From positions 1 to 64,000 of the forward strand of contig CP060223.1 of NCBI GenBank assembly GCA_023898465.1: a DNA stretch of 64,000 nucleotides. Reading direction: 5' to 3'. The position numbers and the translations under genes are program-made. How positions within the stretch are numbered: the stretch's first letter is position 1; each line of letters starts with the position of its first letter. The notes below the pieces were generated by a model, which saw only the letters and a list, made by a program, of their open reading frames with translations, did not search any database and had not been told where the DNA came from. This DNA comes from Candidatus Nomurabacteria bacterium (GTDB taxonomy: Bacteria > Patescibacteriota > Patescibacteriia > HK-STAS-PATE-3). Below, piece by piece: positions 41,448-59,185 of this stretch.

Positions 41448-41862
41448 TTACCTTTGACTCCGAGCAATTGCTACCGCAAAAATGGCCACCACCGTAAACA
41501 GCGAGAGCAGCATCCAATATCCTAAGCGTTTGCTAATGCTGCCAGCTTGGGTGGATTGTGCGTGATGTAATTGTACGGTGATCACTTGTCCGGCCAGGAC
41601 AGCCTCCATGACGATCAAGCCCATTTTTATGAGAAAGGTGGGAGAGCTCAAGGCCTTAGAGAGATAGGGAATAACTAAGGCGATTCCGCTGAGAATTGTT
41701 ATTCCTGCGATGAAAAAACCTAAGCGTCGAGTTTGTACTAAACGATCTAGTCTCTCTGCACTCAAATTTCGCGGCATGGCCAGGATAACGGTGAAGAACA
41801 CCACACCAAGTAAAAGTCCGGCACCAATGATATGAATAATAACTAGGAGAGTATGTAACATA
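41448..41862 (-). CDS. hypothetical polytopic membrane protein
   Basis: Four hydrophobic helices. The ATG at 41862 is preferred over the longer track ORF. Confidence 0.4.
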
Positions 41863-41940
41863 TTGAAACCTAAGAATGAGACGCGTATAGTATAAGGGTG
41901 CTTTTGCATGAGTACAAGCAAGCAATAAGGAGGTGTACTC

Positions 41941-42402: not shown

Positions 42403-42778
42403 AGGGCGTCGTTTGCTTTTCTTGACAGTTTTGGTTATCAGATTTAGGCTAACCTTGAGGCATGAAAGTCTTGAAGGCAGGTGTTCGGCTTGTTCCGGAA
42501 TCACTGACCGAATAGGCAAAAGGGTTGCTCCCAGACCAGTAGCTAAGGTTCGATGTACACGTACATTCCTCTACAGAGAGGTGTTGCGCTAAGTGCGCGA
42601 TTACTACGTGAAACCTCACCCTGCATCTGGGGAGGTGCCGAAGCTCTGGGCGTCACCATTTGGTGTGCGCGGTAGTGTCTCACTTCATGGGGGTCAGCAT
42701 TTCGATGTCTGGCCCCCTTTCCTTTATATACACAAAACCCCGCGTGTGCGAGGTTGTTTGTGTATCACCCTTAGGTGA

Positions 42779-43300
42779 TTAGAGTATTTCCATTTTCACT
42801 ATACGAGCGCCCCATTGCTTAGCTTCTTCTCGTGTGTGCATCCAGATATCGGCGATAGATCCGCCGTAGCGCGCATTCATCCGATCCTCGACCACAAATA
42901 TTTTGTCGCCGTAGACATCGGGGAATCGCACCTGGGTGCCAAAGGGTAAGAGGTTATAGGCAATGATTCCGTCCCGGACATGTGATCCAGATGCAGTGGT
43001 GAATGGATCGCCATCCGTTTGGTCCACCGTACTGGAGTAGGCAGTCAGGGTCAGCCAAAGAGTACGCTTGGCTGGTCGAGCAGGCACATCAGGGAGATGT
43101 CCGCTTGTTTGCGGAGTGGTCAGGAGCGCTTCATCCACGGTGATGCAGCTTGCATCAGGGAGAGCGCTGATGGCAGGTCCGCTGACGTGAGCCATAGCAG
43201 GCTGAGGAAATATGATGTTGATGAGCGCTAGTAAACTGAGAAAAGTGATATGGATTGGCCGCGAGGCTTTCCTCGCAAAGCGTCCAGGAACGTTCGGCAT
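42779..43300 (-). CDS. secreted 3D-domain (MltA-like) protein
   Basis: Signal peptide, then a 3D-domain region TQVRFPDVYGDKIFVVEDRMNARY...IDIWM. Confidence 0.7.
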   Translation of the reverse strand: MPNVPGRFARKASRPIHITFLSLLALINIIFPQPAMAHVSGPAISALPDASCITVDEALLTTPQTSGHLPDVPARPAKRTLWLTLTAYSSTVDQTDGDPFTTASGSHVRDGIIAYNLLPFGTQVRFPDVYGDKIFVVEDRMNARYGGSIADIWMHTREEAKQWGARIVKMEIL

Positions 43301-43462: not shown

Positions 43463-44122
43463 CTATTTTAGGGCCTGAAGCACATCTTGCAAATCGAGCA
43501 ATTGGAGCTCCTCACCATATATTTTTCGCTGCACATCAGTGGCATATCCCGAGGCAGCAAAAGAGATAGCTCGAGGGATTTTTTGGGCAATGAGGCTCTG
43601 ATAAAGCTCATTCAGGTCTTGTCGCGTGACTGTTTTTCCCTTTGGAGCACAGTAGACCGGCACCTTTCCTTTATTTGTAGCGAGGAAGAAGTCAGGTGAG
43701 GGCGATGCAGAGGATTGTGGGCTGGGAAGTATTTGAAAACCCTGTTGTGTAAAGAATTTTTGTAGCTCCTTTATCTGTTGGACATCATTCACTTGTTGCC
43801 AAAAGTAAGTTTGCGAGACTTGCTCTTGCTTAACTTCCTTTTGTTGGAGCTCTTTCTCTACTTTATTTGTTCGCCAGGCAGGAGAGAAAAGTCCGAGAAT
43901 TCTTTTTATTTCTCCAATTTGGTAGACAGCCATGTAAAGTCCGATGAGACCACCTGCCATACCAAAGAGGAAAAGGGAAATAGCAATGTTACGGAAGGTG
44001 AAGCCGGCAAAGAGGAGGAGTACCAGCGCCACGAGGATACCAAAGGTCACTCCGGCGATGACGGTCTGGGTGGGGAGGTGGGCTTCTCTTTGCTCCATTC
44101 TTTTTTTGTCGTCCATATGCAT
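43463..44122 (-). CDS. membrane protein with C-terminal restriction-endonuclease-like (Mrr_cat-type) domain, tentative
   Basis: Two TM helices, then a PD-(D/E)xK-like segment DFFLATNKGKVPVYCAPKG. The domain assignment is weak. Confidence 0.35.
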   Translation of the reverse strand: MHMDDKKRMEQREAHLPTQTVIAGVTFGILVALVLLLFAGFTFRNIAISLFLFGMAGGLIGLYMAVYQIGEIKRILGLFSPAWRTNKVEKELQQKEVKQEQVSQTYFWQQVNDVQQIKELQKFFTQQGFQILPSPQSSASPSPDFFLATNKGKVPVYCAPKGKTVTRQDLNELYQSLIAQKIPRAISFAASGYATDVQRKIYGEELQLLDLQDVLQALK

Positions 44123-44217
44123 AGTATACCCGACTCTAGACTACTTGACAGCCACTACAGAAATTCTCTCGAGCCTGTTACAATTTTATTACCTATAAAA
44201 AGAAAGGAGGCTGAATA

Positions 44218-44313
44218 ATGCTTAATCATCGATTAATGGACGACCCAGAAGAGGAAGGTATGGAAGAAGAGGGTATGGACGAAGACATGGGTGACATGGA
44301 CGAGAACGAATAG
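44218..44313 (+). CDS. putative 31-aa highly acidic peptide
   Basis: AAAGGAGG lies 9 nt before ATG (MLNHRLMDDPEEEGMEEEGMDEDMGDMDENE). Terminator hairpin ctgcccccac...gtgggggcag plus T-tract at 44338-44400. Confidence 0.35.
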   Translation: MLNHRLMDDPEEEGMEEEGMDEDMGDMDENE

Positions 44314-44403
44314 TCCATTCTCCTTCTGGAATCACAACTGCCCCCACACTTCTCATAGTCTGAAAAGGCAAAGAGAGGCGTGGGGGCAGTTTTATTTTTC
44401 CGA

Positions 44404-45237
44404 TTAGTTCGCCGGAAGTATTTCTACACTATCGACCATGCGCTGGTCGTAGTTGTTTCCCTCAGTGGTGATTTCGCCATCTTGCTCATCAGGATTTTTT
44501 GACCAGTAGGTGGCTTCTTGTCCAAGTGACCAGGAAATGACCCGGCCATACTCAGGGGAGTATAAGGTATAGAGTGCTTGGTAATTTTGACATTTCGTTT
44601 CATCAAGACTGAGACCGTCACCAGCAATGCTCACTCGATAGACACCCTCTTGTGAAGCAGGGGTGAGTTCGTCCACCTGACAAGTATCACCATAATACTG
44701 CCTAAGAAAGGCATTCAGTTCATCTTCATTCGCTACCGTCCGACTAATAATATTCCAGCCAATGAAATGAAACTCTAATTGAGGGCTTGTTAGTGAAACT
44801 TTTATACAATCATTAAAGTAGTAGCCAAAAGTATTGTCGTGGTTTTCCTGAATATGCTCATCTTGAAGTAGATAGGTATACTCTGGGGCAATGCGTATTG
44901 TGTTTTCGTGCTGAAAAATTCGGACAGGTGCCTTTGCCCAATCCAGGTATCTTGTTCCATCTTGTTCTTTGCTGCAGGTGGCGCCGTAGTACCACATCGA
45001 TTTTGGGATATCCATAGCAAAGCCCAATCGTTCGTCAGTGTAGCGCCAGAAGTCCGCATCAATTGTTTTGAGTGAGGATCCGGACAATAGGGTGAGTTTT
45101 GTGTCATTGCCTATAGTTACGCTCTGGTCATCATGCGTGCCTGATTGGCCCCAGATAAGTGCTCCAATAATAAGGAGGAGTAGTCCAACTCCAACGACTA
45201 TAGCGACATTACGGGCCTGGCGAAGTTCAGTTTGCAT
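44404..45237 (-). CDS. hypothetical exported/membrane-anchored protein (277 aa)
   Basis: N-terminal hydrophobic anchor. No recognised domain. Confidence 0.5.
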   Translation of the reverse strand: MQTELRQARNVAIVVGVGLLLLIIGALIWGQSGTHDDQSVTIGNDTKLTLLSGSSLKTIDADFWRYTDERLGFAMDIPKSMWYYGATCSKEQDGTRYLDWAKAPVRIFQHENTIRIAPEYTYLLQDEHIQENHDNTFGYYFNDCIKVSLTSPQLEFHFIGWNIISRTVANEDELNAFLRQYYGDTCQVDELTPASQEGVYRVSIAGDGLSLDETKCQNYQALYTLYSPEYGRVISWSLGQEATYWSKNPDEQDGEITTEGNNYDQRMVDSVEILPAN

Positions 45238-45349
45238 GGGTGTAGAGGATAATGCTTACGAAATCAGTGTAGCATGCTACACTTGTCATGCAGAGAGGGG
45301 CGTGCTACAGTGGCTTGCCTGCCTCGCAGGACAAGCTTTCCTTATATAT

Positions 45350-46585
45350 ATGTCATCACCAAATCAATCAGGTTTTTACGGCCTACATGTTGCTCCAAAG
45401 TTCTTGGACATACTCGCCCGTCTCAACTTTACTCAACCCACCCCAATTCAACAAAAAGCCATTCCTTTAGCCATTGATGGCAAGGATCTGATTGGTATTG
45501 CCCAGACTGGTACGGGTAAAACCCTGGCTTTTGGCTTACCAATGTTGCAAAACCTTTCTCGGGTGAAGGGGCAGGGTCTGGTCGTGCTGCCGACTCGTGA
45601 ATTAGCCGCCCAGGTAGATGAAACACTACAACGCTTAGGTCGTGGAATTGGCGTGCGTACGGCAATCATCGTGGGCGGCGCTTCTATGGATCGACAAGAG
45701 CGGATGCTGCGTAATCGTCCACACGTCATTGTCGCTACACCCGGGCGTCTGATTGACCACCTTGGTTCAAAGCCAAACCTCTTGCAGCAGGTAAAAATCC
45801 TGGTGCTTGATGAGGCTGACCGCATGCTTGATATGGGATTTGCGCCGCAGATAAATCAGATATTAGAGAAAGTTTCTAAAGAGCGTCAGACCATGCTCTT
45901 CTCAGCCACGATGCCAACCGAGATTGTGAGCATCGCACAGAAGCACATGGCCCTACCAGTGCGGGTTGAAATTGCTCGACCGGGTAGTACGACTGATCAA
46001 GTGGATCAAGAAGTGCTCTTTGTGTCTAAGCGAAATAAGAACGCACAGCTCGAGCGCTTACTTCAGCGCTATCATGGTACCGTGCTGGTGTTTTCTCGCA
46101 CGAAGTGGAATGCAAAGAAGTTGACTCGCGACATTCGTCAGATGGGCCACACTGCAGCTGAGATTCATTCCAACCGCACTCAAGCACAACGTCGGGAAGC
46201 ACTAGATGGTTTTAAAAGGGGTAAGTATCGTGTCCTCGTGGCGACCGACATTGCTGCACGTGGTATTGATGTAAAAAATATCGAGCTGGTGGTGAACTAT
46301 GACCTGCCAAGTACACCGGATGATTATGTGCACCGTATCGGCCGCACTGGTCGAGCCGGCAAGAAAGGCAAGGCTATTTCCTTTGCCATGCCTGAGCAGC
46401 AACGAGACGTGAGAGACATTGAGCGTCTTATTCGGGCCGAGCTGCCAGTGGGAGAGGATTCCGAGCCAGTAGAAAACCTTGGTTTAGCCAAGAAGGAGTT
46501 TCGACAACAGAAACGACATTTCCCTCGTCAGGGCGGTCGACCACAGCGCCCTCATCGACGCTCAGGTTTTCGCCGACGTCGCTAA
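45350..46585 (+). CDS. DEAD-box ATP-dependent RNA helicase with RG-rich C-terminal tail
   Basis: Q motif, AQTGTGKT, DEAD, SAT and HRIGRTGR motifs. The ATG at 45350 directly follows a TATATA element. Confidence 0.85.
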   Translation: MSSPNQSGFYGLHVAPKFLDILARLNFTQPTPIQQKAIPLAIDGKDLIGIAQTGTGKTLAFGLPMLQNLSRVKGQGLVVLPTRELAAQVDETLQRLGRGIGVRTAIIVGGASMDRQERMLRNRPHVIVATPGRLIDHLGSKPNLLQQVKILVLDEADRMLDMGFAPQINQILEKVSKERQTMLFSATMPTEIVSIAQKHMALPVRVEIARPGSTTDQVDQEVLFVSKRNKNAQLERLLQRYHGTVLVFSRTKWNAKKLTRDIRQMGHTAAEIHSNRTQAQRREALDGFKRGKYRVLVATDIAARGIDVKNIELVVNYDLPSTPDDYVHRIGRTGRAGKKGKAISFAMPEQQRDVRDIERLIRAELPVGEDSEPVENLGLAKKEFRQQKRHFPRQGGRPQRPHRRSGFRRRR

Positions 46586-46633
46586 ACGAGGAGTATAAAA
46601 AAACCATTCCACAGCGGAATGATTTTTTTGTGC

Positions 46634-46765
46634 TTATTTTTTCTTTCCTCGTCGCTTTTTTGCGAGGGCTTCTAGCATTTGTCGCTTGATCTCCAGACGC
46701 TTCTTTGTTTTGCGTGATTTTGATCGTTGCGGGCGACCGACCGCGTGAGCTCGTTTTGCTGCCAT
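46634..46765 (-). CDS. putative 43-aa basic small protein
   Basis: AAGGAA RBS 6 nt upstream. MAAKRAHAVGRPQRSKSRKTKKRLEIKRQMLEALAKKRRGKKK. It is below the track length cut-off. Confidence 0.3.
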   Translation of the reverse strand: MAAKRAHAVGRPQRSKSRKTKKRLEIKRQMLEALAKKRRGKKK

Positions 46766-46849
46766 AGTATTTCCTTAGGATTAATGCGCACTCGCTATTC
46801 TAGCTGATGAGAGAGAGAAAGGCAAAAAACGAGCGTCGCTTTTATCTAA

Positions 46850-47179
46850 TTATTTTTCCGGAAGTGTTTGTACAAAGCTTAATCCTTGCTCCACCCAGTA
46901 CTCAAGCTGCTTTTTTGTCTTTATTCCCTTAGGTTTAATATTGAGCACGCCCCTCATTGGCCTGCCGGTGAAAAGCATTTCCTGAGCGTGTTTGTGTTTC
47001 AGTAGCTCCGGGTATTTTTCTTTCCCTACTCGGACGACCAGTTTATCTTTGATAATTCCGCAGCATAAATTACCGTTTACCATAATAACCAAACCACCGA
47101 ACATTTTTCGTTCATCAACGTGCGGTACGGTAATAAAAATTTTGTAGAGACGTTCTGCGAGTTTCTCGTCGTAGGCCAT
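46850..47179 (-). CDS. TfoX N-terminal domain protein
   Basis: The pattern MFGG...NGNL.CG...LVVRV resembles TfoX/Sxy N-terminal domains. Confidence 0.6.
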   Translation of the reverse strand: MAYDEKLAERLYKIFITVPHVDERKMFGGLVIMVNGNLCCGIIKDKLVVRVGKEKYPELLKHKHAQEMLFTGRPMRGVLNIKPKGIKTKKQLEYWVEQGLSFVQTLPEK

Positions 47180-47497
47180 TATTTTAATTGTACTCCAAAA
47201 TAACGTTTACCGCAGCCATTTTATTAAGTCCAGATTCTTGTCATTATTCTTTCCGTCGGCAAGTTTTGAGTGTTTTTTATGCTAGCTCCCTACTCGATTT
47301 AGGCGATAGGTGAAAAATCTAGCCCGGGGGGTAGAGAATGCAGAAAGTGAAGGTGGAGGGCTTTGTCCGACGGGAGCCGCGCAAGGTGGAGTTGGTCCCA
47401 GGTCAGATAGCTGTGGTACTAGAAAATGGAAGAGGTGGAAAGTTTAGCCTAGCTGTATTAGAGTAGGATTAATAACACCTTGATAAGATAAAGTACA

Positions 47498-48487
47498 ATG
47501 AATATAATACTAGATTCGAATGTGCTGAAGGATAATTATTATCTCAATACACCGAGATTTCAAGCCCTGTTTAGCTATCTAAAAAAAACAAAATCAGAGT
47601 GTTTCATTCCTGAAATAGTAATTTTAGAAACGATAAAAAATTATAAAAGAGATACTGAAGAATACAACAGTATTGTTGATTCCCTAAAGAAGACTAATAG
47701 AGTTTTAGGTCTTAATGGTCCGAACCTTGAAATTAATATGAGCGATATTGTAAATAAGTATGAGCGAAGTATTTATAAAATAATAAAAAAAGTTGGAATA
47801 AAACTAATTCCGACTAAAGACTTGTCAATTTCAATTGATTCAGTTATTTCTCGATCGTTAAATGATATCCCGCCATTTTATAGATCAGGTAGATCAAGTG
47901 ATGTAGGATTTCGAGACTATATAGTTTGGGAGACTGTAAAATTTGTTAATAAAGACTTCGAAGGTAATCTGTGCTTTATATCGAACGATAAAAAAGCATT
48001 CGGACAAAGTTGTGAGTTATTTAGTAGATTAAAAAATGAATCCAACGTTCACTTTTATAACCTATTGGATGAGTTTTTAAATGAATATGCAGAAAAAATT
48101 AATTTTATTAGTGAAGAATACTTGGAGGACTACTTTCGTGAAGTTTTAGAAGATGAAATCCCTAATGTGGTGACTCTTAGCGAGCTACTAGCGACGAAAC
48201 CTGAGAATGAATATATAGATCCTTCTGACATAACTGACTATGAGTTTGATGAAATATCTATTTTGGATTTTTACGTTTATAATGCGACAACAAAATACTA
48301 TTACGTTTTCGTAAGGACAGACTTAATAGTAAGAGCTTATTATCTAAATAGATTAATGCTAGCGGCCGGACTTGATGATGAAGTATCTTCCGATTATTCT
48401 TTTTTAAGGTTCAAGAAATCCTTTTTACTAAGAATTGATAGAAGAACTAAAAGACCAGATCGTTTTCAAAATCATACTAGCAATTAA
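47498..48487 (+). CDS. PIN-like domain protein (DUF4935-type), very AT-rich foreign gene
   Basis: The N-terminus IILDSNVL...FIPEIVILE...ISND carries the three acidic PIN positions. The gene reads as about 30 % GC by eye, in strong contrast with its neighbours. Confidence 0.55.
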   Translation: MNIILDSNVLKDNYYLNTPRFQALFSYLKKTKSECFIPEIVILETIKNYKRDTEEYNSIVDSLKKTNRVLGLNGPNLEINMSDIVNKYERSIYKIIKKVGIKLIPTKDLSISIDSVISRSLNDIPPFYRSGRSSDVGFRDYIVWETVKFVNKDFEGNLCFISNDKKAFGQSCELFSRLKNESNVHFYNLLDEFLNEYAEKINFISEEYLEDYFREVLEDEIPNVVTLSELLATKPENEYIDPSDITDYEFDEISILDFYVYNATTKYYYVFVRTDLIVRAYYLNRLMLAAGLDDEVSSDYSFLRFKKSFLLRIDRRTKRPDRFQNHTSN

Positions 48488-48745
48488 ACTTCTAAGTCCG
48501 CTTGGAAAAACTAGATTTATTTTAAATTATCAACAACCTTATCTATTACGGCCCTTCTTTTCGCTTGCCCATCCAGAGGTCAATAAGGTTTTTCGCATAC
48601 TTAGGTCAAGTTGTCTCACTAACGGGGAGTTTTTTAATGCTTCTTTCATGCTGCGAATGGCAAATAGTATAGCAAATACAATATTGACCAGTACGTTTTT
48701 CTCTGGTATTCTTCCGAGCTGTAACTGAACTTGCACAATAGCGTG

Positions 48746-48820
48746 GTGGCTATAGCACAGTGGTTAGTGCACCGGGTTGTGGTCCCGGTGACATGGGTTC
48801 GAATCCCATTAGCCACCCCA
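48746..48820 (+). tRNA. tRNA-His (anticodon GTG) with G-1
   Basis: G-1 followed by GTGGCTA acceptor, anticodon loop TTGTGGT, T-loop TTCGAAT and an encoded CCA. Confidence 0.85.
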
Positions 48821-48845
48821 GTGTTGTGCAGGTGATGCGAAGACT

Positions 48846-49799
48846 TTATTCGTCTTCGTCTTTTTCATCCCTCCGCCGGCCATGAAAGGCTTTGTACACT
48901 TCACGTAGCTGCGCATTAGTAACGTGGGTGTATATTTGCGTGGTCGTAATAGAGGAGTGGCCGAGCAATTCCTGCACAGAGCGAATATCAGCACCATTCA
49001 TTAGCAGGTCAGTAGCAAAGCTGTGCCGCAGGGTATGCGGTGTAATCTTTTTCGTAATCCCGGCAATCGCGGCGTAGCGCTGCACCATCCGTTGGATAGA
49101 GCGGGGCGTAAGTGGACTGACTTCCTCGCCTTGTATCTCATCACTTTTTCCAGCAGCTCGATCATGTCGGACAAACAGCGCATCGTTGCCGTCGCGCCGC
49201 ATCTGCAGGTAGTGTCGGATCGCCTGCTTCGCTTGTTCAGAAATAAATACCAGTCGGACTTTGCCGCCTTTACCCTTGACCGAGAATTCATCCTTTTCCA
49301 GGTTGAGACTGTTGCGCTGCAGTTTCGCTAACTCGGAAATACGTAATCCCGTTGAGAAGAGTGTTTCGAGAATTGCTCGGTCGCGTTGCTTCACGATGTC
49401 GCTGCTTGGACTTTTATATGGAGCTTGCAAGAGTTGCTCCAAATCCTCTGAATCAAGGAAGTTGACAGAGCGCTGCGACTGTTTCATTAGCTCAATTTTT
49501 TCTGGAGCTAGTGAAGCAATATCGTGTCGCGATAGATATTTCAAAAATGAACGCAGGGCAATGAGGTGGTAGTTTTGCGTTGAGGCTTTAAGAGTTTCAC
49601 TATCTTTACCGAGCAGGCGATTCAACTTCAAACGAAAAGAGCGCACATTCGCCTCGGTAATATCCTTAGGAGTTTTTACTCCGCTCAGCTCAAAAAAGCG
49701 CGTGAGATAAAAATCATAATTGCGGACAGTGAGTTGACTCCGTCCACGCTCGATTTCGAGATACTCAAGAAATTCAGTTTTTAGCTTTTGCAGATCCAC
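48846..49799 (-). CDS. tyrosine site-specific recombinase (XerC/XerD / phage-integrase family)
   Basis: N-terminal core-binding domain and catalytic R...HxxR...Y (LRHSFAT..., GHSSITTTQIYTHV). It starts 25 nt beyond the tRNA-His 3-prime end on the opposite strand. Confidence 0.85.
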   Translation of the reverse strand: MDLQKLKTEFLEYLEIERGRSQLTVRNYDFYLTRFFELSGVKTPKDITEANVRSFRLKLNRLLGKDSETLKASTQNYHLIALRSFLKYLSRHDIASLAPEKIELMKQSQRSVNFLDSEDLEQLLQAPYKSPSSDIVKQRDRAILETLFSTGLRISELAKLQRNSLNLEKDEFSVKGKGGKVRLVFISEQAKQAIRHYLQMRRDGNDALFVRHDRAAGKSDEIQGEEVSPLTPRSIQRMVQRYAAIAGITKKITPHTLRHSFATDLLMNGADIRSVQELLGHSSITTTQIYTHVTNAQLREVYKAFHGRRRDEKDEDE

Positions 49800-49933
49800 C
49801 AGGGAATTTTACGACACAACGGAAGGAAATACAATAAATGCAAAAATCAAAATATGAAACCCACTGTTTGGTAGTATGTGTAGCAGCTTAGTTTTTGACC
49901 AATTTCGATTTTCGTATTTCGAAATTCGAGCTT

Positions 49934-50893
49934 TTATAGTGGTGGTATATACACCCGGTGCAGCTCTTCGTTGCCCTCGAGATTTTGCTGATGCTCAGCT
50001 TCCCGAATCGCCAGGGCAATTTGTCGGACAATGATGTGGAGGAGGATCTGGTTATTGTAGTTGAAGTCGCGCTTGCCTTCTTTATCACCCAGCAGGATAG
50101 CACCAACAACCTCGCCACCAGTGCGGACTTTCACTCCCAGCATAGAAGCGGAGCTATAGGCTGTTTCTAGGTTTGGCTTGGCTTTAAAAACCTCATGTGT
50201 GATAAAGATGTCGCGCTGGGTGCGGTGAATTTCACCGAGAATCGGATCATCGCGCAAGGAGAGTTTTAGAGATTCGATATCCTGATTTTTCTCATAGCCG
50301 ATCGCTTTTTCTATCACGATGCGATTTTCCATTGGGCGATACCAAGCAAAGAGGGCTTTTTTCGCACGAATCGTTTCAGTGATAGTTTGCAATAGAGCTT
50401 CAATCAGATTATCAAGATTGGAGTAGCTGGTAGCAATTTTACCTGTCGCATACACGGTGACAAGTTTATTATTCGCGTGATGCAAGCGATCAGTCAGGTT
50501 GCCCATGATATTGCCAAAGAGCACATTGGCGATGGCGGGTTCCTGTTGCCTGAACTTTTGGAAATCCTTACCAGAAATCACGAGCAGCTGCGCGTCCTCG
50601 GTTACCTCAGCCAGGTGGTGGTGCTCTACATCAGGATTGATCAGGGCGCTCTCTACTAAAAAGGTGTGTGCGCCAAGTAAGGCCAAGGTTTGTACCTCAT
50701 CTTTAAAGGTGCGGTAAATATGCACCTGCCCAGAAAGCACGATAATGAATTCTTTACGCTTATCACCGTTCTCAAACAAGAGTGTCCCACGCTTTGCTTC
50801 TCGCATTTGCGTGATGGCCGCGATTTTTCCTAGGGCTTCATCACTAAGTCCCTGGAAAACGGGGATAGGTTTGAGAATAGAGAGCTCAGGCAT
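49934..50893 (-). CDS. cyclic-nucleotide-binding domain plus GAF domain protein
   Basis: N-terminal cNMP-binding beta-roll (FENGDKRKEFIIVLSGQVHIY) and a C-terminal GAF-like domain. It is co-oriented with pilT at a 2-nt gap. Confidence 0.65.
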   Translation of the reverse strand: MPELSILKPIPVFQGLSDEALGKIAAITQMREAKRGTLLFENGDKRKEFIIVLSGQVHIYRTFKDEVQTLALLGAHTFLVESALINPDVEHHHLAEVTEDAQLLVISGKDFQKFRQQEPAIANVLFGNIMGNLTDRLHHANNKLVTVYATGKIATSYSNLDNLIEALLQTITETIRAKKALFAWYRPMENRIVIEKAIGYEKNQDIESLKLSLRDDPILGEIHRTQRDIFITHEVFKAKPNLETAYSSASMLGVKVRTGGEVVGAILLGDKEGKRDFNYNNQILLHIIVRQIALAIREAEHQQNLEGNEELHRVYIPPL

Positions 50894-50895
50894 GG

Positions 50896-51945
50896 TTAAT
50901 CGAGGAATTCAGGGTTGGCCATGTGTGCCACCGCGACTTCCCGGGAGATTAATTCGTTTTGATACATTTGTTTGAGCGATTGATCCATGGTCATCATGCC
51001 CTCCTCTGAGCTGGTCTGAATCGCTGTCTTAATCTGGTGTACCTTATTTTCTCGGATCAGGTTAGCAATAGCCGGAGTGTTGATGAGCACTTCACGAGCA
51101 GCCACACGACCGCCGCCGTTTTTCGGCAAAAGCAGCTGGGAAATAATCCCGCGCAAGAAAAGCGAGAGCTGCAAACGTACCTGCGCCTGCTGATACGGCG
51201 GGAAGACGTCAATAATACGATCGATCGATTGGGCTGCATTTAAGGTGTGCAGCGTGGCAAAAACCAAGTGACCGGTTTCGGCTAAGGTAATGGTAGAGGC
51301 GATAGTTTCTAAGTCGCGCATTTCTCCAACCAGAATGATGTTCGGATCCTGACGGAGGACGTGCTTCAAACCTTCACCAAAGCTCAACATGTCAGAGCCA
51401 AGCTGACGTTGTCGGATGACACTCTTCTTCGGTGTGTACAGGAACTCAATCGGATCTTCCAGTGTAATAATGTTCGCGTTTCGCTTAGAGTTGAGCAGCT
51501 CTATCATAGCGGCCAGGGAAGTGGACTTACCACAACCAGTTGGACCGGTAACGAGGATTAAGCCTTGATTAAGGTCAAGTAAATCATAAACCACCGGAGG
51601 CATGAGGAGCTCCTCCATAGCTGGTATGTTGGTTGAAATAACACGAGACACGAGACCCGGGTAAGTTTTTTCCCAAAGCATGTTTACACGGAAACGTGAA
51701 ACATCTTTTATCTCATAGGAAATATCCAGCTCGCGTTTGCTTTCGTATATCTTGCGCTGGCTCTCATTTAATATGCTGAAGCACAAGGTTTTCACTTGCT
51801 CAGGCGTCAGAACTGGCTTATCAGGCACACGCTGCAAAACTCCATCAATACGGACGATGGGCGGGAGGTTGGCGATTAAGTGAATGTCAGAGGCTTTGTG
51901 TTTGACTGCGTAGAGAAAAATTTCGTCGATGGATAGGCTAGGCAT
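50896..51945 (-). CDS. pilT: type IV pilus retraction ATPase PilT
   Basis: Walker A GPTGCGKST, Asp box, His box, and the PilT-specific C-terminus. Confidence 0.9.
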   Translation of the reverse strand: MPSLSIDEIFLYAVKHKASDIHLIANLPPIVRIDGVLQRVPDKPVLTPEQVKTLCFSILNESQRKIYESKRELDISYEIKDVSRFRVNMLWEKTYPGLVSRVISTNIPAMEELLMPPVVYDLLDLNQGLILVTGPTGCGKSTSLAAMIELLNSKRNANIITLEDPIEFLYTPKKSVIRQRQLGSDMLSFGEGLKHVLRQDPNIILVGEMRDLETIASTITLAETGHLVFATLHTLNAAQSIDRIIDVFPPYQQAQVRLQLSLFLRGIISQLLLPKNGGGRVAAREVLINTPAIANLIRENKVHQIKTAIQTSSEEGMMTMDQSLKQMYQNELISREVAVAHMANPEFLD

Positions 51946-52150
51946 TTTCTTTTGTTAGACAAGCATGGGTAAGTACTCCTTATAGTAGCAGGAATGAGAG
52001 AAATTCGAAATATGAAGCTCGAAATGCAAAACAAATTCGAATGAGAAAAATACCAATGAGATAAACAGGCAGGTTTTGAGCCTTGAAATATTCGCGTTTT
52101 ATATGTGCTTAGGACTTAGCGCTTAGGGTTTCGTGTTTTTCTCTGTGGTC

Positions 52151-52179
52151 TTGACAATTTTAACAATTTGTGCTATTAT
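52151..52179 (+). promoter_or_regulatory. consensus sigma70 promoter TTGACA-17-TATTAT for the four-gene operon
   Basis: Perfect -35 hexamer. A leader of about 145 nt runs to the first ATG. Confidence 0.5.
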
Positions 52180-52334
52180 CCCGCGTTACGTTGCCAGAAA
52201 TGGCGGTCGTAGCACGATCATTGACAAGTGAATAGTCAGTTGATCGTCACAATAGTGAGGCAGCTTTTAGGCTGTTCTCTTGTGAATGGTCGTAAGCGTT
52301 CGAAAAAGCAGGTCTTAGACCTGGGGAGGATGCA

Positions 52335-52919
52335 ATGGCTGATATCACCGGCTTCTTGGAAAAGATTGCCGGGGCGATAATTGGAGCCAAAGATGAAAAA
52401 GGTGCCGACCAAAAGCCAGCCACGAAAAAGAAGGGTTGGCTTGAGGACGTCGCAGAGATCGAGATGGACAGGGTTTTGCCTGCCATTGCGAGGTCTATTT
52501 TTCGTCTGACCGGCGGCCGAGGTAAGGAGTTTATCGCTCTACTCACGAGCGATCCGGCTAAGTTGGTCTGGGCTCGACTCACCCCTGATCATTGGAAGTA
52601 CTCGAACCTGATCGACAATGCTCGAAATCGTCTGGCTGTTGAACTTTCCAAACTATCGACTGGAGAGGCCTCGCTCGATGATGACGAAGTAGGTCTAAGT
52701 CTGGCAGAGATCGATTGGTCCGTCGCCGACTTCGAGACACTACTTGAGGTGAGCATTGCTCGAGCCGAGTTTGAGTTGGAGTATCCCGAAATGATACCCG
52801 CCTATGATAGGTTTGTGGCAAATCTCCTGAAAGGGAATGGCGCAAAGAAGAAAGAGGGCGGTAAGGATACGAGGGGCAGCAAAGGCAAGCAGTCAGGAGG
52901 TAAAGATGGTGGAAAGTAG
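52335..52919 (+). CDS. operon gene A: hypothetical soluble protein with Lys/Gly-rich C-terminal tail
   Basis: GGGGAGGA RBS. 194 aa. GC-rich codons. No recognised domain. Confidence 0.5.
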   Translation: MADITGFLEKIAGAIIGAKDEKGADQKPATKKKGWLEDVAEIEMDRVLPAIARSIFRLTGGRGKEFIALLTSDPAKLVWARLTPDHWKYSNLIDNARNRLAVELSKLSTGEASLDDDEVGLSLAEIDWSVADFETLLEVSIARAEFELEYPEMIPAYDRFVANLLKGNGAKKKEGGKDTRGSKGKQSGGKDGGK

Positions 52920-53445
52920 CAACCCCAAGAAGGGCCTCCTCGATCGCTTCCTGAAAGGGACGCCAGACGAGAAGGCCACCGTGCTGCGAAGTGTCGGCAT
53001 GGGTACTGGAAGTGGAGGAGCCACGGCAAAACGTGACTTCAACGCGCTTTTGTATCGCAGTTCTCAGATCACGGATCAGATGCGTGAAGCGTATGCGGAG
53101 TTTCGACGTGGTCTCAGCATCGAACAACTGGAAGCAGTCCGGCGTATTGAGGCGACGTTGAATGATGTCGGTTCAGTACGTTCATGGCTTGAGTTGAATG
53201 ATGACCAGCGTATCGAGGTGGCTGAGAACTACAGCACCACTACCGTGCCTCAGCAAGAGGTAGCCGATGCAGTTCGTGGAGCTGCCGGGGCGCTTCAACG
53301 GGGTACTGCCTCGATGGCGGGTTTTCGTGAACGCCACCGTGCTGGTCTGGAAGAGAAGAAGCAGAAGTGGCAAGAAGAAGATGAAGCAAGAGCGCGTCGG
53401 CGAGAAGCTGTGCGCGGCTGGCTTCGAAATCCTTTCCGGCGATAG
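52906..53445 (+). CDS. operon gene B: hypothetical soluble protein with Gly-rich loop and charged helical C-terminus
   Basis: GGAGG lies 6 nt before ATG (MVESSNPKK...). It overlaps the end of A by 14 nt. The track lists a longer ORF from 52837. Confidence 0.5.
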   Translation: MVESSNPKKGLLDRFLKGTPDEKATVLRSVGMGTGSGGATAKRDFNALLYRSSQITDQMREAYAEFRRGLSIEQLEAVRRIEATLNDVGSVRSWLELNDDQRIEVAENYSTTTVPQQEVADAVRGAAGALQRGTASMAGFRERHRAGLEEKKQKWQEEDEARARRREAVRGWLRNPFRR

Positions 53446-53460
53446 TCAACGAAGGAGGTC

Positions 53461-54813
53461 ATGATGTGGGAACGGATCAAGCGTTTCTTCGCCGGCGAGG
53501 TGGAGGACGCGCTAGGTGAGCTTGGTGGCGAAAGTGTGAATGTCATCACAGCGTTCCTGGAAACGGTCTGGTGCGTAGCCTCGGTCTTTTACCAGACTGA
53601 GGTCAGAGTGTTGAAGCGTGGGCTTCCTTGGTTGATTGTTTGGTTGACCACTTGGGCCATGACGACAATAGTAGCCTGGGTTTGCAACAACTTCTTTTGG
53701 CACCGACCTTGGTTGTCGTCAGTAATTGGTCTTGCCTCGACTCTCTTCGCCTTATTCGTCTTTATCTATGGAGGGAGAATTCTCTTCATATTAGCGGTGG
53801 CGAAGGGGATCACGACCATGAGGCTCTCGAGGTGGAAGCCCTGGGAGATAAATGTGCTCATGGAAGATCTCCGTCGGGGCATGGATGGAACGCTCGACGG
53901 GTATTTCTACTTTCTCCGGATTCTGAGTTGGGTGGCAATTGGTGAGCTCTTGTTCTTCATCTATGGGAACATCTTCCCAATGTGGAACAATTACGCCGTG
54001 ATGCCGCTTTTCTTTTCCACCCTTCTTGTGTTCATACTTCTGTCGAAGAAGCTGAGCACGGGCGCGGAGAAGGCGGCTCGGATGCAGCAGGTGCAGCAGG
54101 TGATGCTCGTCATCGCCGTTCTGTGTTCGGGGAGCTTCCTGGCGCCGGGACCTTTCCAGCGCTTTGGAGCAATGCTCACGAGCCTACAGACCAAGGCAGC
54201 CTCTGACACCTGGTTCCCAGTGTCGGCGCTCTTGATCGTCTTCATCACTCTTGCGGTGTACGGCAGCAAGTCCTTGCTCAAGTACACGCAGTGGTTGATG
54301 ATCGGCTTGGCGTCGTCGTACATCGGCTACGTGGCCATCTCCGCAGTCTGGATCAAGCACAACACTCCGCTCGTGCCGACGGTTTTCCTAGGTACGGTCG
54401 CTCTGGTGCTGGTGCTGGCGGCAATCGGACTCACGATGCCGAAGTCGACTGACGGGTCCGGTAAGCGGATGGCTCTTGGTGTTGGTCTGGCTGGATTGAC
54501 TTGCGCCTGCCTCCTCCTCTTCTACGGGGGGAGTCAGGACGGACAGTATCTGGATCCGGTCTCGGGTGCCGCGAAGGTTTTCGTGGCAACTGATCCGGTG
54601 ACAGAGACCCAGATCGGCGTTCGCGGACCAAAGGCGGCGACGTACACGGTTGATCCCGAGTACGGACAGCCCTTCGTTGCCTGGACCTCTCTCACCAGAG
54701 AGGAGCAGGACAAGTTCCGCAAGAACCCGAAGTGGATCGATGAGGTCAAGCTGGAAGGCTTGGGTCTCACGAACAGTAACGCGACCTACACACTGAAAGG
54801 AGGCACACCGTAA
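53461..54813 (+). CDS. operon gene C: hypothetical polytopic membrane protein (450 aa)
   Basis: GGAGG RBS. At least 8 hydrophobic segments. No recognised family. Confidence 0.55.
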   Translation: MMWERIKRFFAGEVEDALGELGGESVNVITAFLETVWCVASVFYQTEVRVLKRGLPWLIVWLTTWAMTTIVAWVCNNFFWHRPWLSSVIGLASTLFALFVFIYGGRILFILAVAKGITTMRLSRWKPWEINVLMEDLRRGMDGTLDGYFYFLRILSWVAIGELLFFIYGNIFPMWNNYAVMPLFFSTLLVFILLSKKLSTGAEKAARMQQVQQVMLVIAVLCSGSFLAPGPFQRFGAMLTSLQTKAASDTWFPVSALLIVFITLAVYGSKSLLKYTQWLMIGLASSYIGYVAISAVWIKHNTPLVPTVFLGTVALVLVLAAIGLTMPKSTDGSGKRMALGVGLAGLTCACLLLFYGGSQDGQYLDPVSGAAKVFVATDPVTETQIGVRGPKAATYTVDPEYGQPFVAWTSLTREEQDKFRKNPKWIDEVKLEGLGLTNSNATYTLKGGTP

Positions 54814-55757
54814 TGGTGTCGATCCTCGATATCTATGTGCTTTTCGCCGTCTTCATGCTGGTGTTTCTCAACTTCCGGCGTGGAGACTGGACGCGGGGTA
54901 TCGCAGCGGTGATCTTCGGCGCTTTGGGTGTCGGCTTCCTCGTCGGGATGATCAAGTCTTTCCCGCTGCAAGTGGGAATGCTGGAGCCTCCGCTTCGCAC
55001 CTGGTCGACTGCAGGCACGGTGGAAATCGTGTTCCGCCTGGCGATCACGTTCGGCCTGATCTATTGGCTTGTGTACATGATCAGGGTAAAGAAGTGGACG
55101 CTGCGACCTGTTGTCTTGGGGATTGCGGTCCTCATGGCACTGGGCTTCGATACTGGCATGATGCTGCGACCGTACTATACGGACAGTCTCGCGCCGGTCG
55201 TCGAGGTAGCAGCAGCTGATTCACTCGAAACGAACTACGAGTCCTTGACTCTGGTCGCACGTGCGAATCAGCGAGAGAATCGGGTGCGTTCGGTTCAGAA
55301 GGGCGATCTCGTCATCTGCCGCTTCGTAGGAGAGCCTGACAAGTTCTGCTACCGAGCGCTCAAGAGCACTCCGTACTATCGGGGCGCTCGAGAGGTGCAG
55401 TTGGTCGGCTCCTATCAGGATCCTACCCAGCACTCGGTTCGTGACTACATCAACGCGACGGACTACAGCTTCCTGCTTCCGCCGTCGCGCATCAGCGCTC
55501 GACGAATCCCCACCAGCCTCAACTTCATCGGTGTCTGCGGCTATGCCCCGGCACCTCTGCAAGATGAGGTGGCAAGCTTCGTGGTACGGGAGTCAGGGGA
55601 TTTGTACATCGGGTATAACACCCGAGCCTACAATATGCCTTTGACTCGCTTCGCTACCTTCAACTTCGGCTACTGGCACGCACCCATGAATCCTCCTACG
55701 GTGAATGGGGAACGTGTCTTTCAGGTCACGGTCATTCCTGCTGGAGAGTGGGGATGA
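54813..55757 (+). CDS. operon gene D: hypothetical membrane protein (4 N-terminal TM helices plus a soluble C-terminal domain of about 200 aa)
   Basis: AGGAGG RBS. Its ATG overlaps the stop of C (TAATG). Confidence 0.55.
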   Translation: MVSILDIYVLFAVFMLVFLNFRRGDWTRGIAAVIFGALGVGFLVGMIKSFPLQVGMLEPPLRTWSTAGTVEIVFRLAITFGLIYWLVYMIRVKKWTLRPVVLGIAVLMALGFDTGMMLRPYYTDSLAPVVEVAAADSLETNYESLTLVARANQRENRVRSVQKGDLVICRFVGEPDKFCYRALKSTPYYRGAREVQLVGSYQDPTQHSVRDYINATDYSFLLPPSRISARRIPTSLNFIGVCGYAPAPLQDEVASFVVRESGDLYIGYNTRAYNMPLTRFATFNFGYWHAPMNPPTVNGERVFQVTVIPAGEWG

Positions 55758-55813
55758 TCACAATGTTCTTTTACCTTCAACCGCCTGGGCGTGGAAGCCC
55801 TGGCTATCAAAGG

Positions 55814-55858
55814 CCCTGTCTCGAATAAACAACGAGAGACAGGGTCTTTTTCTTTTTG
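55814..55858 (+). terminator. rho-independent terminator of the four-gene operon
   Basis: ccctgtctcg...cgagagacaggg hairpin followed by tctttttctttttg. Confidence 0.55.
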
Positions 55859-55939
55859 TAAGCACACCAAGGCTGGGATGCCTTGGCTAGTTGTTATTAC
55901 CTTGAAATTCAGGCCATTTTTTGCTATACTGCACCTACC

Positions 55940-58900
55940 ATGCGATTTCATTTAGCTTCACGCATCCTCATCGGAGCGCTTCTCGTGCTTACTGGAGCGC
56001 TATTTTCGCATACCGTGTTTGCTGCATATGGTGATGTGACGAGTTTTACCAGCAAAGTGTATGCAGGAGATGGCGGACAAGCAGCTAATGCATGGTTAGA
56101 TTTTCCGGAAGATATTAATTTTGATGCTGATGGCAACCTTTACGTTGCTGATACAGAGAATTTTGTTATTCGAAAAATAGACACGAACGGCGTGATCAGC
56201 ACCTACGCCGGATCTGGCCATTATGGTTTTTACAATGCGCCTGGGAATGCTGCTCAATTTGCTTCGCCAAAAGGACTTGCCATTGATAGCTCAGGGAATA
56301 TCTACGTGGCGGACACGGATAACAACATGATTCGCAAGATTGATCGTTATCGTGGCATCTCCACTGTGTTATCAGACAATTTGAACGCTCCCGAAGGTAT
56401 CACAGTATATGGTAGCTATCTCTACATTGCCGATACTGGGAATAACGCAGTAAAAAAACTCAATCTTGGTAACGGACGAGTTGATATTCTTAGTTCTGAT
56501 GTTTCTCATCCACGTAAGTTAGTAGTAAATACTGATGGGAGCTTAGTCTATGTCACTGACTCGGGAAATAATCGAGTAGTTTCAGTGAATACCAGCACCG
56601 GATTAACCTCATTGATTGCTGGAAGCTCAGAAGGGTATCGAGAGGGTGTGGGAAGTGCGGCAAAGTTTTCTAATCTCGCAGGAATTGCCTTTGACGGCAC
56701 CTATATATATGTGGGCGATGGATCAGGGCATGATAATCGCATTCGCAAAATCCACATTGGCACGAGACAGACAAGCTTGGTGGCTGATGATCCTCGTTTG
56801 CAAGTATTTAGCACTCCTTTTGGCATCCGGATTCGAAACGGGAAAATCTACGGCGCCAGCACCGGAAATAGCACCATCCAATCCTTTACTGCTTCAAACG
56901 GCGAACACTATGCGCGCATCGCCGGAATTGATCGCTTTGGTTATCGTAACGGGTCAATCACTGAAGCGCTTTTTGGTCGACCAAATGATGTGGTTATGAA
57001 CGCGGCTCGGACAAAAATGTATGTAGCTGAGAATAATAAGATTCGTGAAATTAACCTCGAAACCAGTCAGGTTCGATTAGTAGCGGGTAACTCGATTGAT
57101 GATTACGTAGGCGAGGGACAAAGCGGATCCGCAGCTCGCTTCAGCACTATTACTGCCATGGCAATCAATAGTGATGGAGATACGCTCTATGTGGTTGATC
57201 ACTGGAATAATCGCATTCGCGCAGTCGACGTTGCCACGGGCACTACGTCTTTAATTGCTGGAGGAGGAGAGTACAATACGAGTGGCTCAGGCAATGGTTA
57301 TGCAGAGGGAAGTGGAGAAAGTGCTCGTTTTGATAATCCTTTTGGTATTGCTATTTCGCCTGACGATACCACCTTATATATCACTGATGTAGCAAATCGT
57401 CGTATTCGTAAAGTGGTTATTTCGACTGGCGCCACCTCTCTTGTTGCTGGCTCAGGTGCAAATACTTCAAGTGATGGCTCAGGTGCTGCCGCGTCATTTA
57501 TGTATCCGGCTGGCATTACTATCGATACCGCAGGTGAAAATCTCTATGTAGCAGATCGCGATGCGCATACTTTGCGTAAGATTCGCTTGTCCGATGCTAT
57601 GGTCACCACGATCGTTGGTACGGCCGGTCGACAAGGTTATCGTGATGGCATTGGTGCAAATGCTGTCCTTTCTTATCCGCTGTATGTGAAGTGGGGCAGT
57701 GATAATCGCCTTTATTTCTCCGAAGCAGGATCGCTTCGACTTCGCTTAGTAGAAGTGAGTGACATGTTAACTAAATTGGTAGCTGGTAGCGGAAATCGTG
57801 GCTATCACGATAGCACACGGACTGATGCAAAATTCAATAATATCGCTGGATTTGCTGTTGATATTCCTTCACATACGCTTTTTGCTGCTGATAATCGTAA
57901 TGATTTAATTCGACGTATTAGTATTGCCGGTTCGCCGCCTTACTCTGATCCACAACCAGTTGTACAAGGTGTGCGACCAAGTCCGATAAAAGATCAAACA
58001 GATGCGTCAGCCGTAGCCTATCTCGATGTTTTGGGCGCGAACTTCCTGCATGGCGCCGAAACAAAGTTTGGTGATTTTCGCACTACTACCTATGTAAAGA
58101 GTGATTCGCAGCTTACCGTAGTTATCCCGATCGGTTTGATGGAGCCGGGACACTACGATGTCTCAGTGACAAATCTTGATGGCCAGGTTGATATCCTTAC
58201 CAATGGCTTTGGTCTCTCTGATGCGAATGGAAATGTGCCGGAGCGCTTCTTCCCCATTTTGGAGCAAGGTGGCTTCTATGCCTATGCGCCAAACTTCCCA
58301 GGAGGAGTAAATCTGAGTTCCGGCGATGTGAATAATGACGGTCGTGATGAAATAATTACCGCCCCGGCATCTCTCGGTGGACCACATGTTCGTTACTTTA
58401 CCAAAGATGGCTCTGTGGTCGGTCAGCTCTTTGCCTATGCGCCGAGTTATCGCGGGGGAGTGAGTGTTGCCTCTTGCGACATTGATGGTGATGGTAAGGA
58501 CGACATCGTGACGGGTACGGATGGAGCGAAGGCGCCGCATGTACGTATCTTGCGAGCCGACGGTTCATTAATTAACCAATTCTTTGCCTACCCGCAGGCT
58601 TTCCGGATCGGTGTGACAGTAGCCTGTGGTGATGTGACTGGTGACGGTAATCCGGAAATTGTAGTGAGTCCGCAAGCACGCGGTGGTCCACACGTCCGCG
58701 TCTTTACTCCAAATGGCCAATTAGTTTCTCAATTCTTTGCCTACCCGGCACATTTTCGCTTAGGTCTCGACTTAGCTCTCGGCGACACTGACGGGGACGG
58801 TACAAAAGAAATTATTGTCGCACCGTTGACCAATGGCGGTCCACATGTTCGCCGTTTTAATGCGCAGGGTCAACTCCTCGGTCAATTCTTTGCCTACGGT

Positions 58901-59185
58901 GCAAATCTGAGAACTGGAATCACTATTGAAGCTGGCGATACCGATGGTGATGGTCGGGATGAAATTGTGACTGGCACTGAGAATGGCGCAGCGCCTCACA
59001 TTCGTATCTTTGATGGTAATGGATCTGTTGAAGGACAGTTCTATGGATTTGCTTCGCGCCTCCGCAATGGTGTACACATTGGGGTAGGTGATTACGACGG
59101 TGATGGTGTTGCCGATATTGCCGCAAGCTTGGCGCGTGGTCTTTCCACAGTGCATGTCTACGATAGCAACGGCAACGATTTGTAA
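55940..59185 (+). CDS. large secreted protein with N-terminal NHL repeats and C-terminal FG-GAP (integrin-alpha-like) repeats
   Basis: Signal peptide MRFHLASRILIGALLVLTGALFSHTVFA. Repeated YVADTxNxxIRKID units. At least 7 C-terminal D.DGDG...PHVR..F repeats. The ATG lies 9 nt after a TATACT -10-like hexamer. Confidence 0.8.
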   Translation: MRFHLASRILIGALLVLTGALFSHTVFAAYGDVTSFTSKVYAGDGGQAANAWLDFPEDINFDADGNLYVADTENFVIRKIDTNGVISTYAGSGHYGFYNAPGNAAQFASPKGLAIDSSGNIYVADTDNNMIRKIDRYRGISTVLSDNLNAPEGITVYGSYLYIADTGNNAVKKLNLGNGRVDILSSDVSHPRKLVVNTDGSLVYVTDSGNNRVVSVNTSTGLTSLIAGSSEGYREGVGSAAKFSNLAGIAFDGTYIYVGDGSGHDNRIRKIHIGTRQTSLVADDPRLQVFSTPFGIRIRNGKIYGASTGNSTIQSFTASNGEHYARIAGIDRFGYRNGSITEALFGRPNDVVMNAARTKMYVAENNKIREINLETSQVRLVAGNSIDDYVGEGQSGSAARFSTITAMAINSDGDTLYVVDHWNNRIRAVDVATGTTSLIAGGGEYNTSGSGNGYAEGSGESARFDNPFGIAISPDDTTLYITDVANRRIRKVVISTGATSLVAGSGANTSSDGSGAAASFMYPAGITIDTAGENLYVADRDAHTLRKIRLSDAMVTTIVGTAGRQGYRDGIGANAVLSYPLYVKWGSDNRLYFSEAGSLRLRLVEVSDMLTKLVAGSGNRGYHDSTRTDAKFNNIAGFAVDIPSHTLFAADNRNDLIRRISIAGSPPYSDPQPVVQGVRPSPIKDQTDASAVAYLDVLGANFLHGAETKFGDFRTTTYVKSDSQLTVVIPIGLMEPGHYDVSVTNLDGQVDILTNGFGLSDANGNVPERFFPILEQGGFYAYAPNFPGGVNLSSGDVNNDGRDEIITAPASLGGPHVRYFTKDGSVVGQLFAYAPSYRGGVSVASCDIDGDGKDDIVTGTDGAKAPHVRILRADGSLINQFFAYPQAFRIGVTVACGDVTGDGNPEIVVSPQARGGPHVRVFTPNGQLVSQFFAYPAHFRLGLDLALGDTDGDGTKEIIVAPLTNGGPHVRRFNAQGQLLGQFFAYGANLRTGITIEAGDTDGDGRDEIVTGTENGAAPHIRIFDGNGSVEGQFYGFASRLRNGVHIGVGDYDGDGVADIAASLARGLSTVHVYDSNGNDL

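Follow-up and report, generated by a model that had tools for sequence, protein, structure and literature searches.

A four-gene operon beside pilT in Candidatus Nomurabacteria, with a mosaic allele and a conserved, structured leader

Four consecutive genes, here called A to D, lie divergently from the pilus retraction gene pilT in a 64,000-nt stretch of DNA (the window) that is part of a 1.08-Mb contig (CP060223.1) of a Candidatus Nomurabacteria metagenome-assembled genome (MAG) from the Candidate Phyla Radiation (CPR/Patescibacteria). Comparison with related sequences indicates that A-D form a single, translationally coupled operon running from promoter to terminator, in an arrangement that is kept in relatives. 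In a close relative, a 1.9-kb block of the operon is replaced by an unalignable allele, and the untranslated leader upstream of it is more conserved than the proteins downstream of it. The interpretation favored here, which is tentative and given a little less than an even chance, is that of a vertically inherited operon of a narrow Nomurabacteria lineage that encodes an envelope complex with a recombining specificity module. The features of the locus are as follows, in window coordinates:

52000-52153, no strand: divergent spacer that separates the pilT start from the operon promoter, compared below with the close relative L003
52151-52179, + strand: sigma-70-type promoter, TTGACA-17-(TG)TATTAT
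52180-52334, + strand: structured 5' leader, 155 nt, three predicted hairpins
52221-52235, + strand: leader motif TTGACAAGTGAATAG, single copy in the window, also present in a diverged second genome (L005, below)
52335-52919, + strand: gene A, 194 aa, predicted cytoplasmic and acidic, with a basic Gly/Lys-rich disordered tail; variable module
52906-53445, + strand: gene B, 179 aa, predicted cytoplasmic, with an Arg-rich C-terminus; variable module
53461-54813, + strand: gene C, 450 aa, polytopic membrane protein
53461-54100, + strand: variable N-terminal half of C, approximately transmembrane segments (TM) 1-5 with cytoplasmic loops; co-varies with A and B
54101-54813, + strand: constant C-terminal half of C, approximately TM6-TM10 and a 95-aa tail that is predicted to lie outside the cytoplasm
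54813-55757, + strand: gene D, 314 aa, membrane-anchored, start coupled to the C stop
~55815-55858, + strand: intrinsic terminator, GC-rich hairpin followed by TCTTTTTCTTTTT

The four same-strand open reading frames (ORFs) coincide with the GenBank calls H6760_00290 to H6760_00305, all of which are annotated as hypothetical proteins. The end of gene A overlaps the start of gene B by 14 nt, the stop (TAA) of C and the ATG start of D share one A (TAATG), and an AGGAGG-type Shine-Dalgarno (SD) sequence is found at all four starts. The promoter matches the consensus at 11 of 12 positions, has a TG extension and is the best sigma-70 match of the region. The terminator hairpin folds at -24 kcal/mol (z = -4.6); it was missed by a consensus terminator scan because its loop is 13 nt long. 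An initial annotation of this DNA, made from the sequence alone, had described the operon in these terms, with coupled junctions, its own promoter, a hairpin and T-tract terminator and divergence from pilT, and each of these elements is borne out; the upstream divergent gene is indeed annotated as PilT.

Several other sequences carry the locus. In the operon region, the window shares 100% identity with the Logan contigs L001 (35 kb) and L002 (4.3 kb). A third, the 3.2-kb contig L003, comes from another sample and represents a close relative that is ~95% identical to the window. A diverged second genome is represented by L005/L006, an NCBI MAG contig (GCA_964637345.1, CAZWTD010000007.1). Although the title of this record reads “uncultured Gammaproteobacteria bacterium”, the genes on it are syntenic with the Nomurabacteria genome and 52-85% identical; judged by gene content, the label is probably a taxonomic mislabelling or the result of mis-binning.

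The comparison with L003 reveals a mosaic, in which nucleotide identity changes abruptly along the locus:

51580-51999: pilT, ~95%
52000-52153: spacer, 50-60%, with indels
52154-52333: -10 element and leader, 96%
52334 to ~53900: A, B and the start of C, 35-45% (unalignable)
53909-54028: region of the “YGNIFPMWNNY” motif of C, a partly conserved island
from ~54150: rest of C, ~93%

The replaced block covers A and B and reaches to codon ~210 of C. At the protein level, C is 42% identical to its L003 counterpart over the first ~170 residues and 90% identical over the remainder. Fourfold-degenerate sites differ at 12 of 53 positions in pilT and 29 of 125 in the C-terminal half of C, and the neutral identity between the window and L003 is therefore ~77%. 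Since point mutation cannot generate a 1.9-kb unalignable block in such a background, recombination with a deeply diverged allele must have replaced it. In the C-terminal half of C, 41 synonymous and only 7 nonsynonymous codon differences indicate clear purifying selection.

Instead of separate A and B genes, L003 has one ORF of 343 aa. The encoded protein resembles A in its N-terminal half (24-29% identity) and B in its C-terminal part (30-33%), and the linker between the two, rich in Lys, Gly and Asp, corresponds to the tail of A. The fusion suggests that A and B act as one unit, and their joint replacement with the start of C suggests an interaction of the two with the N-terminal half of that protein. 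The three known alleles, from the window, L003 and L005, are roughly equidistant from one another, and trans-specific sharing of the L003 allele with L005 was rejected on this ground.

Between the unalignable spacer and the unalignable coding block lies the leader, which is 95% identical to that of L003, compared with 77% at neutral sites. Only 8 of its 155 positions differ, whereas neutral change would be expected to give ~36 differences (binomial P = 1.3e-9), taking as reference the 41 of 178 fourfold-degenerate sites that differ in the conserved coding segments on either side. The predicted fold of the leader, with a minimum free energy of -64.9 kcal/mol (z -6.15), consists of three hairpins, the last of which adjoins the SD of gene A and pairs with part of it. 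The antisense strand reaches only -38.7 kcal/mol, a strand asymmetry that fits a G-U-dependent structure formed at the RNA level. The L003 leader adopts the same fold (z -5.85), and the three substitutions that fall within stems all keep pairing through G-U. From this pattern of conservation we conclude that the leader is a functional element under selection, and it is most likely a cis-acting RNA that affects translation or transcript stability. It has no match in Rfam at gathering thresholds, and a permissive search (E up to 10) returned two chance matches to small nucleolar RNAs (E 1.8 and 8.7). Two other candidate explanations were rejected: a leader peptide, as the 11-codon ATG ORF at 52201 lacks both an SD and conservation in L005, and a second promoter at TTGACAAGTGAATAG, as no acceptable -10 element follows it in either the window or L005.

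L003 keeps both hexamers of the operon promoter despite the divergence of the 17-nt spacer that separates them, which argues for a functional promoter. At the equivalent position, L005 has a similar one, TTGACA-17-TAGTGT.

The second genome, L005, places the operon in a wider context. To the left of the operon it has the genes for a Xer-type recombinase, a protein with cyclic-nucleotide (cNMP) and GAF domains, and PilT, in the same order as the window. To the right follow ORFs of 207, 160, 475 and 346 aa and then genes for a ~1,100-aa NHL/FG-GAP protein and a giant Kelch/fn3 protein. The four-ORF order beside pilT, which the initial annotation had proposed to check in other genomes, is thus kept, and so is the coupling: C' and D' share a stop/start overlap, here GTGA, and the SD lies within the Gly codons just before it, and A' and B' also overlap. 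The other shared genes are 52-85% identical between the two genomes (PilT 85%, Xer 72%, cNMP/GAF 64%, NHL 60%), compared with 23% for C, 22% for D and, for B, 34% over 32 aa only. A has no significant BLASTP match in L005, and profile comparison of A with A' finds just a short motif, “EM..YDRFV”, before the Gly/Lys tail; for B and B' it finds just “VRSWLELNDDQRIEVA”. At the level of sequence, these comparisons show that A-D have diverged far beyond the neighboring genes.

The C-terminal GGTP of protein C (window 54796-54813; L005 9988-10004) is invariant in all three homologues. It was rejected as a functional motif of the protein, as it coincides with the AGGAGG SD of D within K-G-G codons, and its conservation probably acts at the nucleotide rather than the protein level.

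An ordinary, fast-evolving envelope or transport complex specific to the lineage would be an alternative explanation for this divergence. A-D would then be under weak constraint, in part disordered and full of membrane segments, and recombination would have brought in the L003 mosaic neutrally, with no role for it in recognition or an arms race. CPR genomes are rich in lineage-specific hypothetical membrane proteins, and the low-complexity tails of A and B, the absence of a defense or toxin signature in PADLOC and the purifying selection on the C-terminal half of C, which would be ordinary constraint, are all compatible with such a complex. However, neutral drift cannot yield a 1.9-kb block that is unalignable in a ~95% background while the embedded leader keeps 95% identity, and A-D fall far under the 52-85% range of all the other orthologue pairs. 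This explanation is considered doubtful, if still worth keeping in mind.

Base composition had led the initial annotation to suggest horizontal acquisition, on the ground that the third codon positions of the four genes are strongly G/C, unlike those of the flanking genes. Measured against the 36 other ORFs of the window (mean 0.456, sd 0.068), the G+C content at third codon positions (GC3) is indeed high for C (0.72, z 3.9) and D (0.70, z 3.6). A (0.55) and B (0.53), however, are not outliers and equal pilT (0.55) and the cNMP/GAF gene (0.52), so that this part of the claim falls. In L005, C' and D' again have the highest GC3, 0.81 and 0.80, compared with 0.55-0.71 in the flanks. Because L005 has the same excess, the excess is most probably a long-standing property of the locus and does not point to a recent import. 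It could be compatible with recurrent recombination, through GC-biased gene conversion, or with a shared, GC-richer pool of alleles. A codon bias of membrane proteins was rejected as the cause, as other transmembrane proteins of the window have a GC3 of 0.44-0.46.

A recently acquired, mobile, GC-rich cassette would account for the GC3 of C and D, and a tRNA-His gene (48746-48820) and a tyrosine recombinase gene lie within 4 kb. The recombinase, however, gives a full-length match to XerC/XerD/XerA, is of the housekeeping Xer type, and is itself syntenic in L005 at 72% identity; the tRNA-His gene is also found nearby in L005. The slot beside pilT is occupied in L005 too, with the same GC3 excess over the flanks, A and B are compositionally unremarkable, and no att-like or terminal repeats bounding A-D were found. 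Searches with tblastn found no relatives of the locus in 50,697 GenBank phage or 72,556 PLSDB plasmid records, the C and D profiles retrieved nothing from IMG/VR, and the D profile retrieved nothing from the JGI metagenomes. When the cNMP/GAF protein was used as an anchor, the GTDB species representatives yielded L005's own contig alone and the JGI metagenomes nothing. The cassette is thus largely refuted and highly improbable, and the horizontal acquisition and the mobile appearance that had been proposed at the outset are not supported. These results show, as far as sequences can, a fixed, lineage-restricted locus in a narrow Nomurabacteria lineage with no recent mobile import. The opposite possibility, that A-D are ordinary conserved genes of the lineage with no compositional deviation, agrees with the data only in part: their position is conserved, but their composition deviates and their evolution is extraordinarily fast.

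Synteny with L005/L006 extends over window positions 37550-43300 and 48846-59185. The interval 43463-48500, which includes genes for two membrane proteins, a DEAD helicase, a TfoX_N protein and a PIN protein, is missing at that place in L005 and, from this comparison, is a second variable segment of the region. The PIN_12-domain gene (47498-48487, + strand; GC 0.30, GC3 0.24) adjoins tRNA-His and lies inside a low-GC stretch (47001-49000, GC 0.36-0.38); the corresponding place in L005 holds a Na/Ca exchanger gene. By its composition and context, this gene, rather than A-D, is the real candidate for recent horizontal acquisition hereabouts.

The topology of the proteins was assessed by Kyte-Doolittle hydropathy with a 19-residue window and by the positive-inside rule. 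In C, ~10 TM segments are followed by a C-terminal tail of 95 aa, and in D, 4 TM segments by a C-terminal domain of 196 aa; A and B have none. This agrees with the membrane-plus-soluble architecture first proposed, which had at least 8 segments in C, and four N-terminal ones and a domain of ~200 aa in D. By the positive-inside rule, the C-terminal domains of both C and D are predicted to be extracytoplasmic.

The proteins could not be assigned to any family, as had been suspected from the start. A-D give nothing at E <= 1 in Pfam, PHROGs, PADLOC and NCBIfam except chance-level noise, and seven divergent homologues have nothing significant in the same databases; the one signal to Wzy_C, in a TM stretch of a D relative (P0008), is at chance level (E 0.047). 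Profiles of the A, B, C and D families match nothing among PDB sequences, and no nuclease, NTPase or other enzymatic motif was seen. Neither an internal duplication in C nor paralogues of A-D in the window were found. In a word-indexed search of 5.8 billion clustered proteins, C finds itself and its L003 homologue (P0007, 76% identical), D finds itself alone, and a three-sequence profile of C retrieves just its three members. An exhaustive phmmer search of 1.84 billion representatives with D adds two remote relatives: P0008 on contig L004 (28%, E 2.6e-12) and P0009 on L005 (24%, E 5.8e-4). The closer one, P0008, is encoded by a stand-alone gene (L004 4228-5157) on a high-GC contig that does not look like CPR, next to two PD40/Tricorn-type beta-propeller lipoproteins and with no A-, B- or C-like partner. 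The architecture of D can therefore exist by itself.

An AlphaFold2 model of D, made from a three-sequence alignment, has a mean predicted local distance difference test score (pLDDT) of 50 and shows four N-terminal helices followed by an all-beta C-terminal domain. A Foldseek search with it gave jelly-roll and cupin matches, all non-significant, and hhalign of the D profile with the lectin LecA gave E 0.44 over 10 columns, with a LecA sequence that is approximate. The C-terminal domain of D is accordingly described only as a putative beta-sandwich-like ectodomain. The corresponding model of C (pLDDT 38.6) is unusable. By sequence, profile and fold tests, A-D are outside every catalogued family and system, a novelty that consists in their being unassignable.

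Anti-phage defense or abortive infection was among the candidate functions of the initial annotation. In such a system, A and B would sense a phage component, C and D would be the membrane effector, and the hypervariability would reflect an arms race. The fastest-evolving parts, A and B, are predicted to be cytoplasmic, the operon is compact, coupled and includes membrane proteins, and alleles are replaced between near-identical genomes, all of which such a system would explain. Against this, neither A-D (at E <= 1) nor the seven homologues have a match in PADLOC-DB v2, and A-D lack any enzymatic motif. The slot beside pilT is fixed in two diverged genomes, unlike the patchy, island-borne distribution of defense systems, which are usually found across phyla, whereas A-D have next to no relatives in either of the large protein collections. 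Defense thus receives no positive support here, and we regard it as unlikely.

An accessory role in type IV pili or secretion, as a platform or alignment complex or a VirB6-like channel protein, is suggested by the adjacency to pilT and the divergent transcription from it, both kept in L005, and by the giant surface proteins encoded downstream. Neither A-D nor their homologues, however, match a pilus or type IV secretion system (T4SS) family in Pfam or NCBIfam. PilT is the sole neighbor of this kind, it forms a separate leftward unit with the cNMP/GAF gene, and no VirB4/VirB3-type genes are nearby. A T4SS described in Patescibacteria has VirB4/VirB3-type neighbors and is unrelated to A-D (PMC12102498). 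There is little reason to believe in such a role, and it is rated very improbable.

According to the favored interpretation, A-D would encode a complex in the cytoplasmic membrane. A and B, as the fusion in L003 suggests by “Rosetta-stone” logic, would form one cytoplasmic unit bound to the 10-TM protein C at the latter's variable N-terminal half. At the cell surface, the constant half of C, together with D, would display a small tail and a beta-sandwich-like ectodomain. The variable module would be swapped within the population by homologous recombination, for which the leader and the constant half of C would serve as anchors, and the leader RNA would probably control translation or transcript stability. 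The locus would then be neither a housekeeping transporter nor a mobile cassette, but a specificity-determining, arms-race or recognition locus of the epibiont envelope, directed at host, phage or kin. A more elaborate form, which is improbable as it stands, would be a four-component CPR envelope system for partner discrimination, consisting of a specificity module (A-B and the five-helix N-terminal part of C, in deeply diverged alleles that recombination exchanges), a constant surface module (the C-terminal part of C and D, with a lectin-like ectodomain) and a leader RNA of a new class.

Several points weigh against this interpretation. The functional role of A-D is drawn entirely from sequences and models, the topology of C and D is predicted from a hydropathy window and the positive-inside rule, and the family and fold assignments all failed or are weak (pLDDT 50 for D and 39 for C). 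The most divergent proteins, A and B, are predicted to be cytoplasmic, a better fit to an intracellular arms race than to surface recognition, and partly disordered proteins diverge fast even without selection for diversity. Allele exchange at the population level is read from a single mosaic comparison, with the 3.2 kb of L003, and just three alleles, from two species-level lineages, are known. As for the leader, the two sequences compared contain no compensatory double substitutions, and that of L005 shares only the 15-nt motif TTGACAAGTGAATAG and folds with a z of -2.3.

CPR/Patescibacteria are obligate epibionts whose genomes encode many membrane proteins of no assignable family, and the A-D locus bears on how they recognize hosts and resist phages. 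It offers a testable case, with a fixed place between the gene of the pilus retraction ATPase and those of giant surface proteins. From the sharp bounds of the allelic swap, the parts that interact would be A/B and C in its N-terminal half. Should specificity reside in the variable module, this module would provide a handle on partner discrimination in uncultured epibionts, and the leader, if the interpretation is true, would be a new cis-regulatory RNA. Among the many orphan operons of CPR bacteria, the mosaic pattern and the conserved leader make A-D unusually tractable.

A few further features of the window were observed in passing. Downstream of the cNMP/GAF gene, at 49912-49929, there is a palindrome, ATTTCGAAAT(TCGA), and GAAATTCGAAAT with CGAAAT repeats lies just upstream of pilT (52000-52025), with a diverged form in the L003 spacer; CGAAAT is not enriched across the window. 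The motif may be a regulator site for the pilT unit. The NHL/FG-GAP gene has a good promoter of its own (55902-55930, TTGAAA-17-TATACT with a TG extension) and contains 153-nt periodic repeats (58376-58980) that encode FG-GAP blades. On the minus strand, 3524-4984 encodes a secreted-looking protein of 486 aa with an elevated GC3 (0.62) and a Por_Secre_tail domain (E 2.7e-7), the C-terminal sorting domain of type IX secretion, which is unexpected in a CPR bacterium.

No description of the A-D locus was found in the literature; the “hypervariable gene” described in Gracilibacteria is repeat-based and differs from A-D (PMC6851277). The structural neighbors of the D model, at its pLDDT of 50, are of beta-sandwich and lectin type, with lectins of the PA-IL/LecA type (PllA, 5odu; EclA, 6ygq; LecA, 3zyb) among them. 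These lectins were not recovered by Foldseek with that model, however, and neither D nor P0008 or P0009 matches PA-IL (PF07828) in Pfam. LecA is also soluble, whereas D is anchored in the membrane through its four TM helices. With the membrane-effector systems in PADLOC, A-D share the form of a small coupled operon of fast-evolving cytoplasmic and transmembrane proteins; unlike them, A-D match no model, occupy a fixed syntenic position and have no cross-phylum distribution.

Parallels are also found among specificity loci whose alleles are exchanged by recombination, such as the O-antigen and capsule loci, with their hyperdivergent Wzy and Wzx membrane proteins, and IdsD/IdsE, by which Proteus mirabilis recognizes self. 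A-D differ from these in having no glycosyltransferase, sugar-nucleotide or type VI secretion genes, no sequence or profile similarity to Wzy_C or Ids, and only three known alleles. As in those loci, conserved flanks surround unalignable alleles in near-identical genomes, the composition is atypical, and variable polytopic segments co-vary with partner proteins. The leader, in turn, differs from known cis-regulatory leaders in having no Rfam match, no terminator-like attenuator and no covariation support. Like riboswitches, RNA thermometers and the leaders of ribosomal-protein operons, it is long, strand-specific, strongly folding and constrained, and it lies between promoter and SD, with the SD partly paired in the last hairpin.

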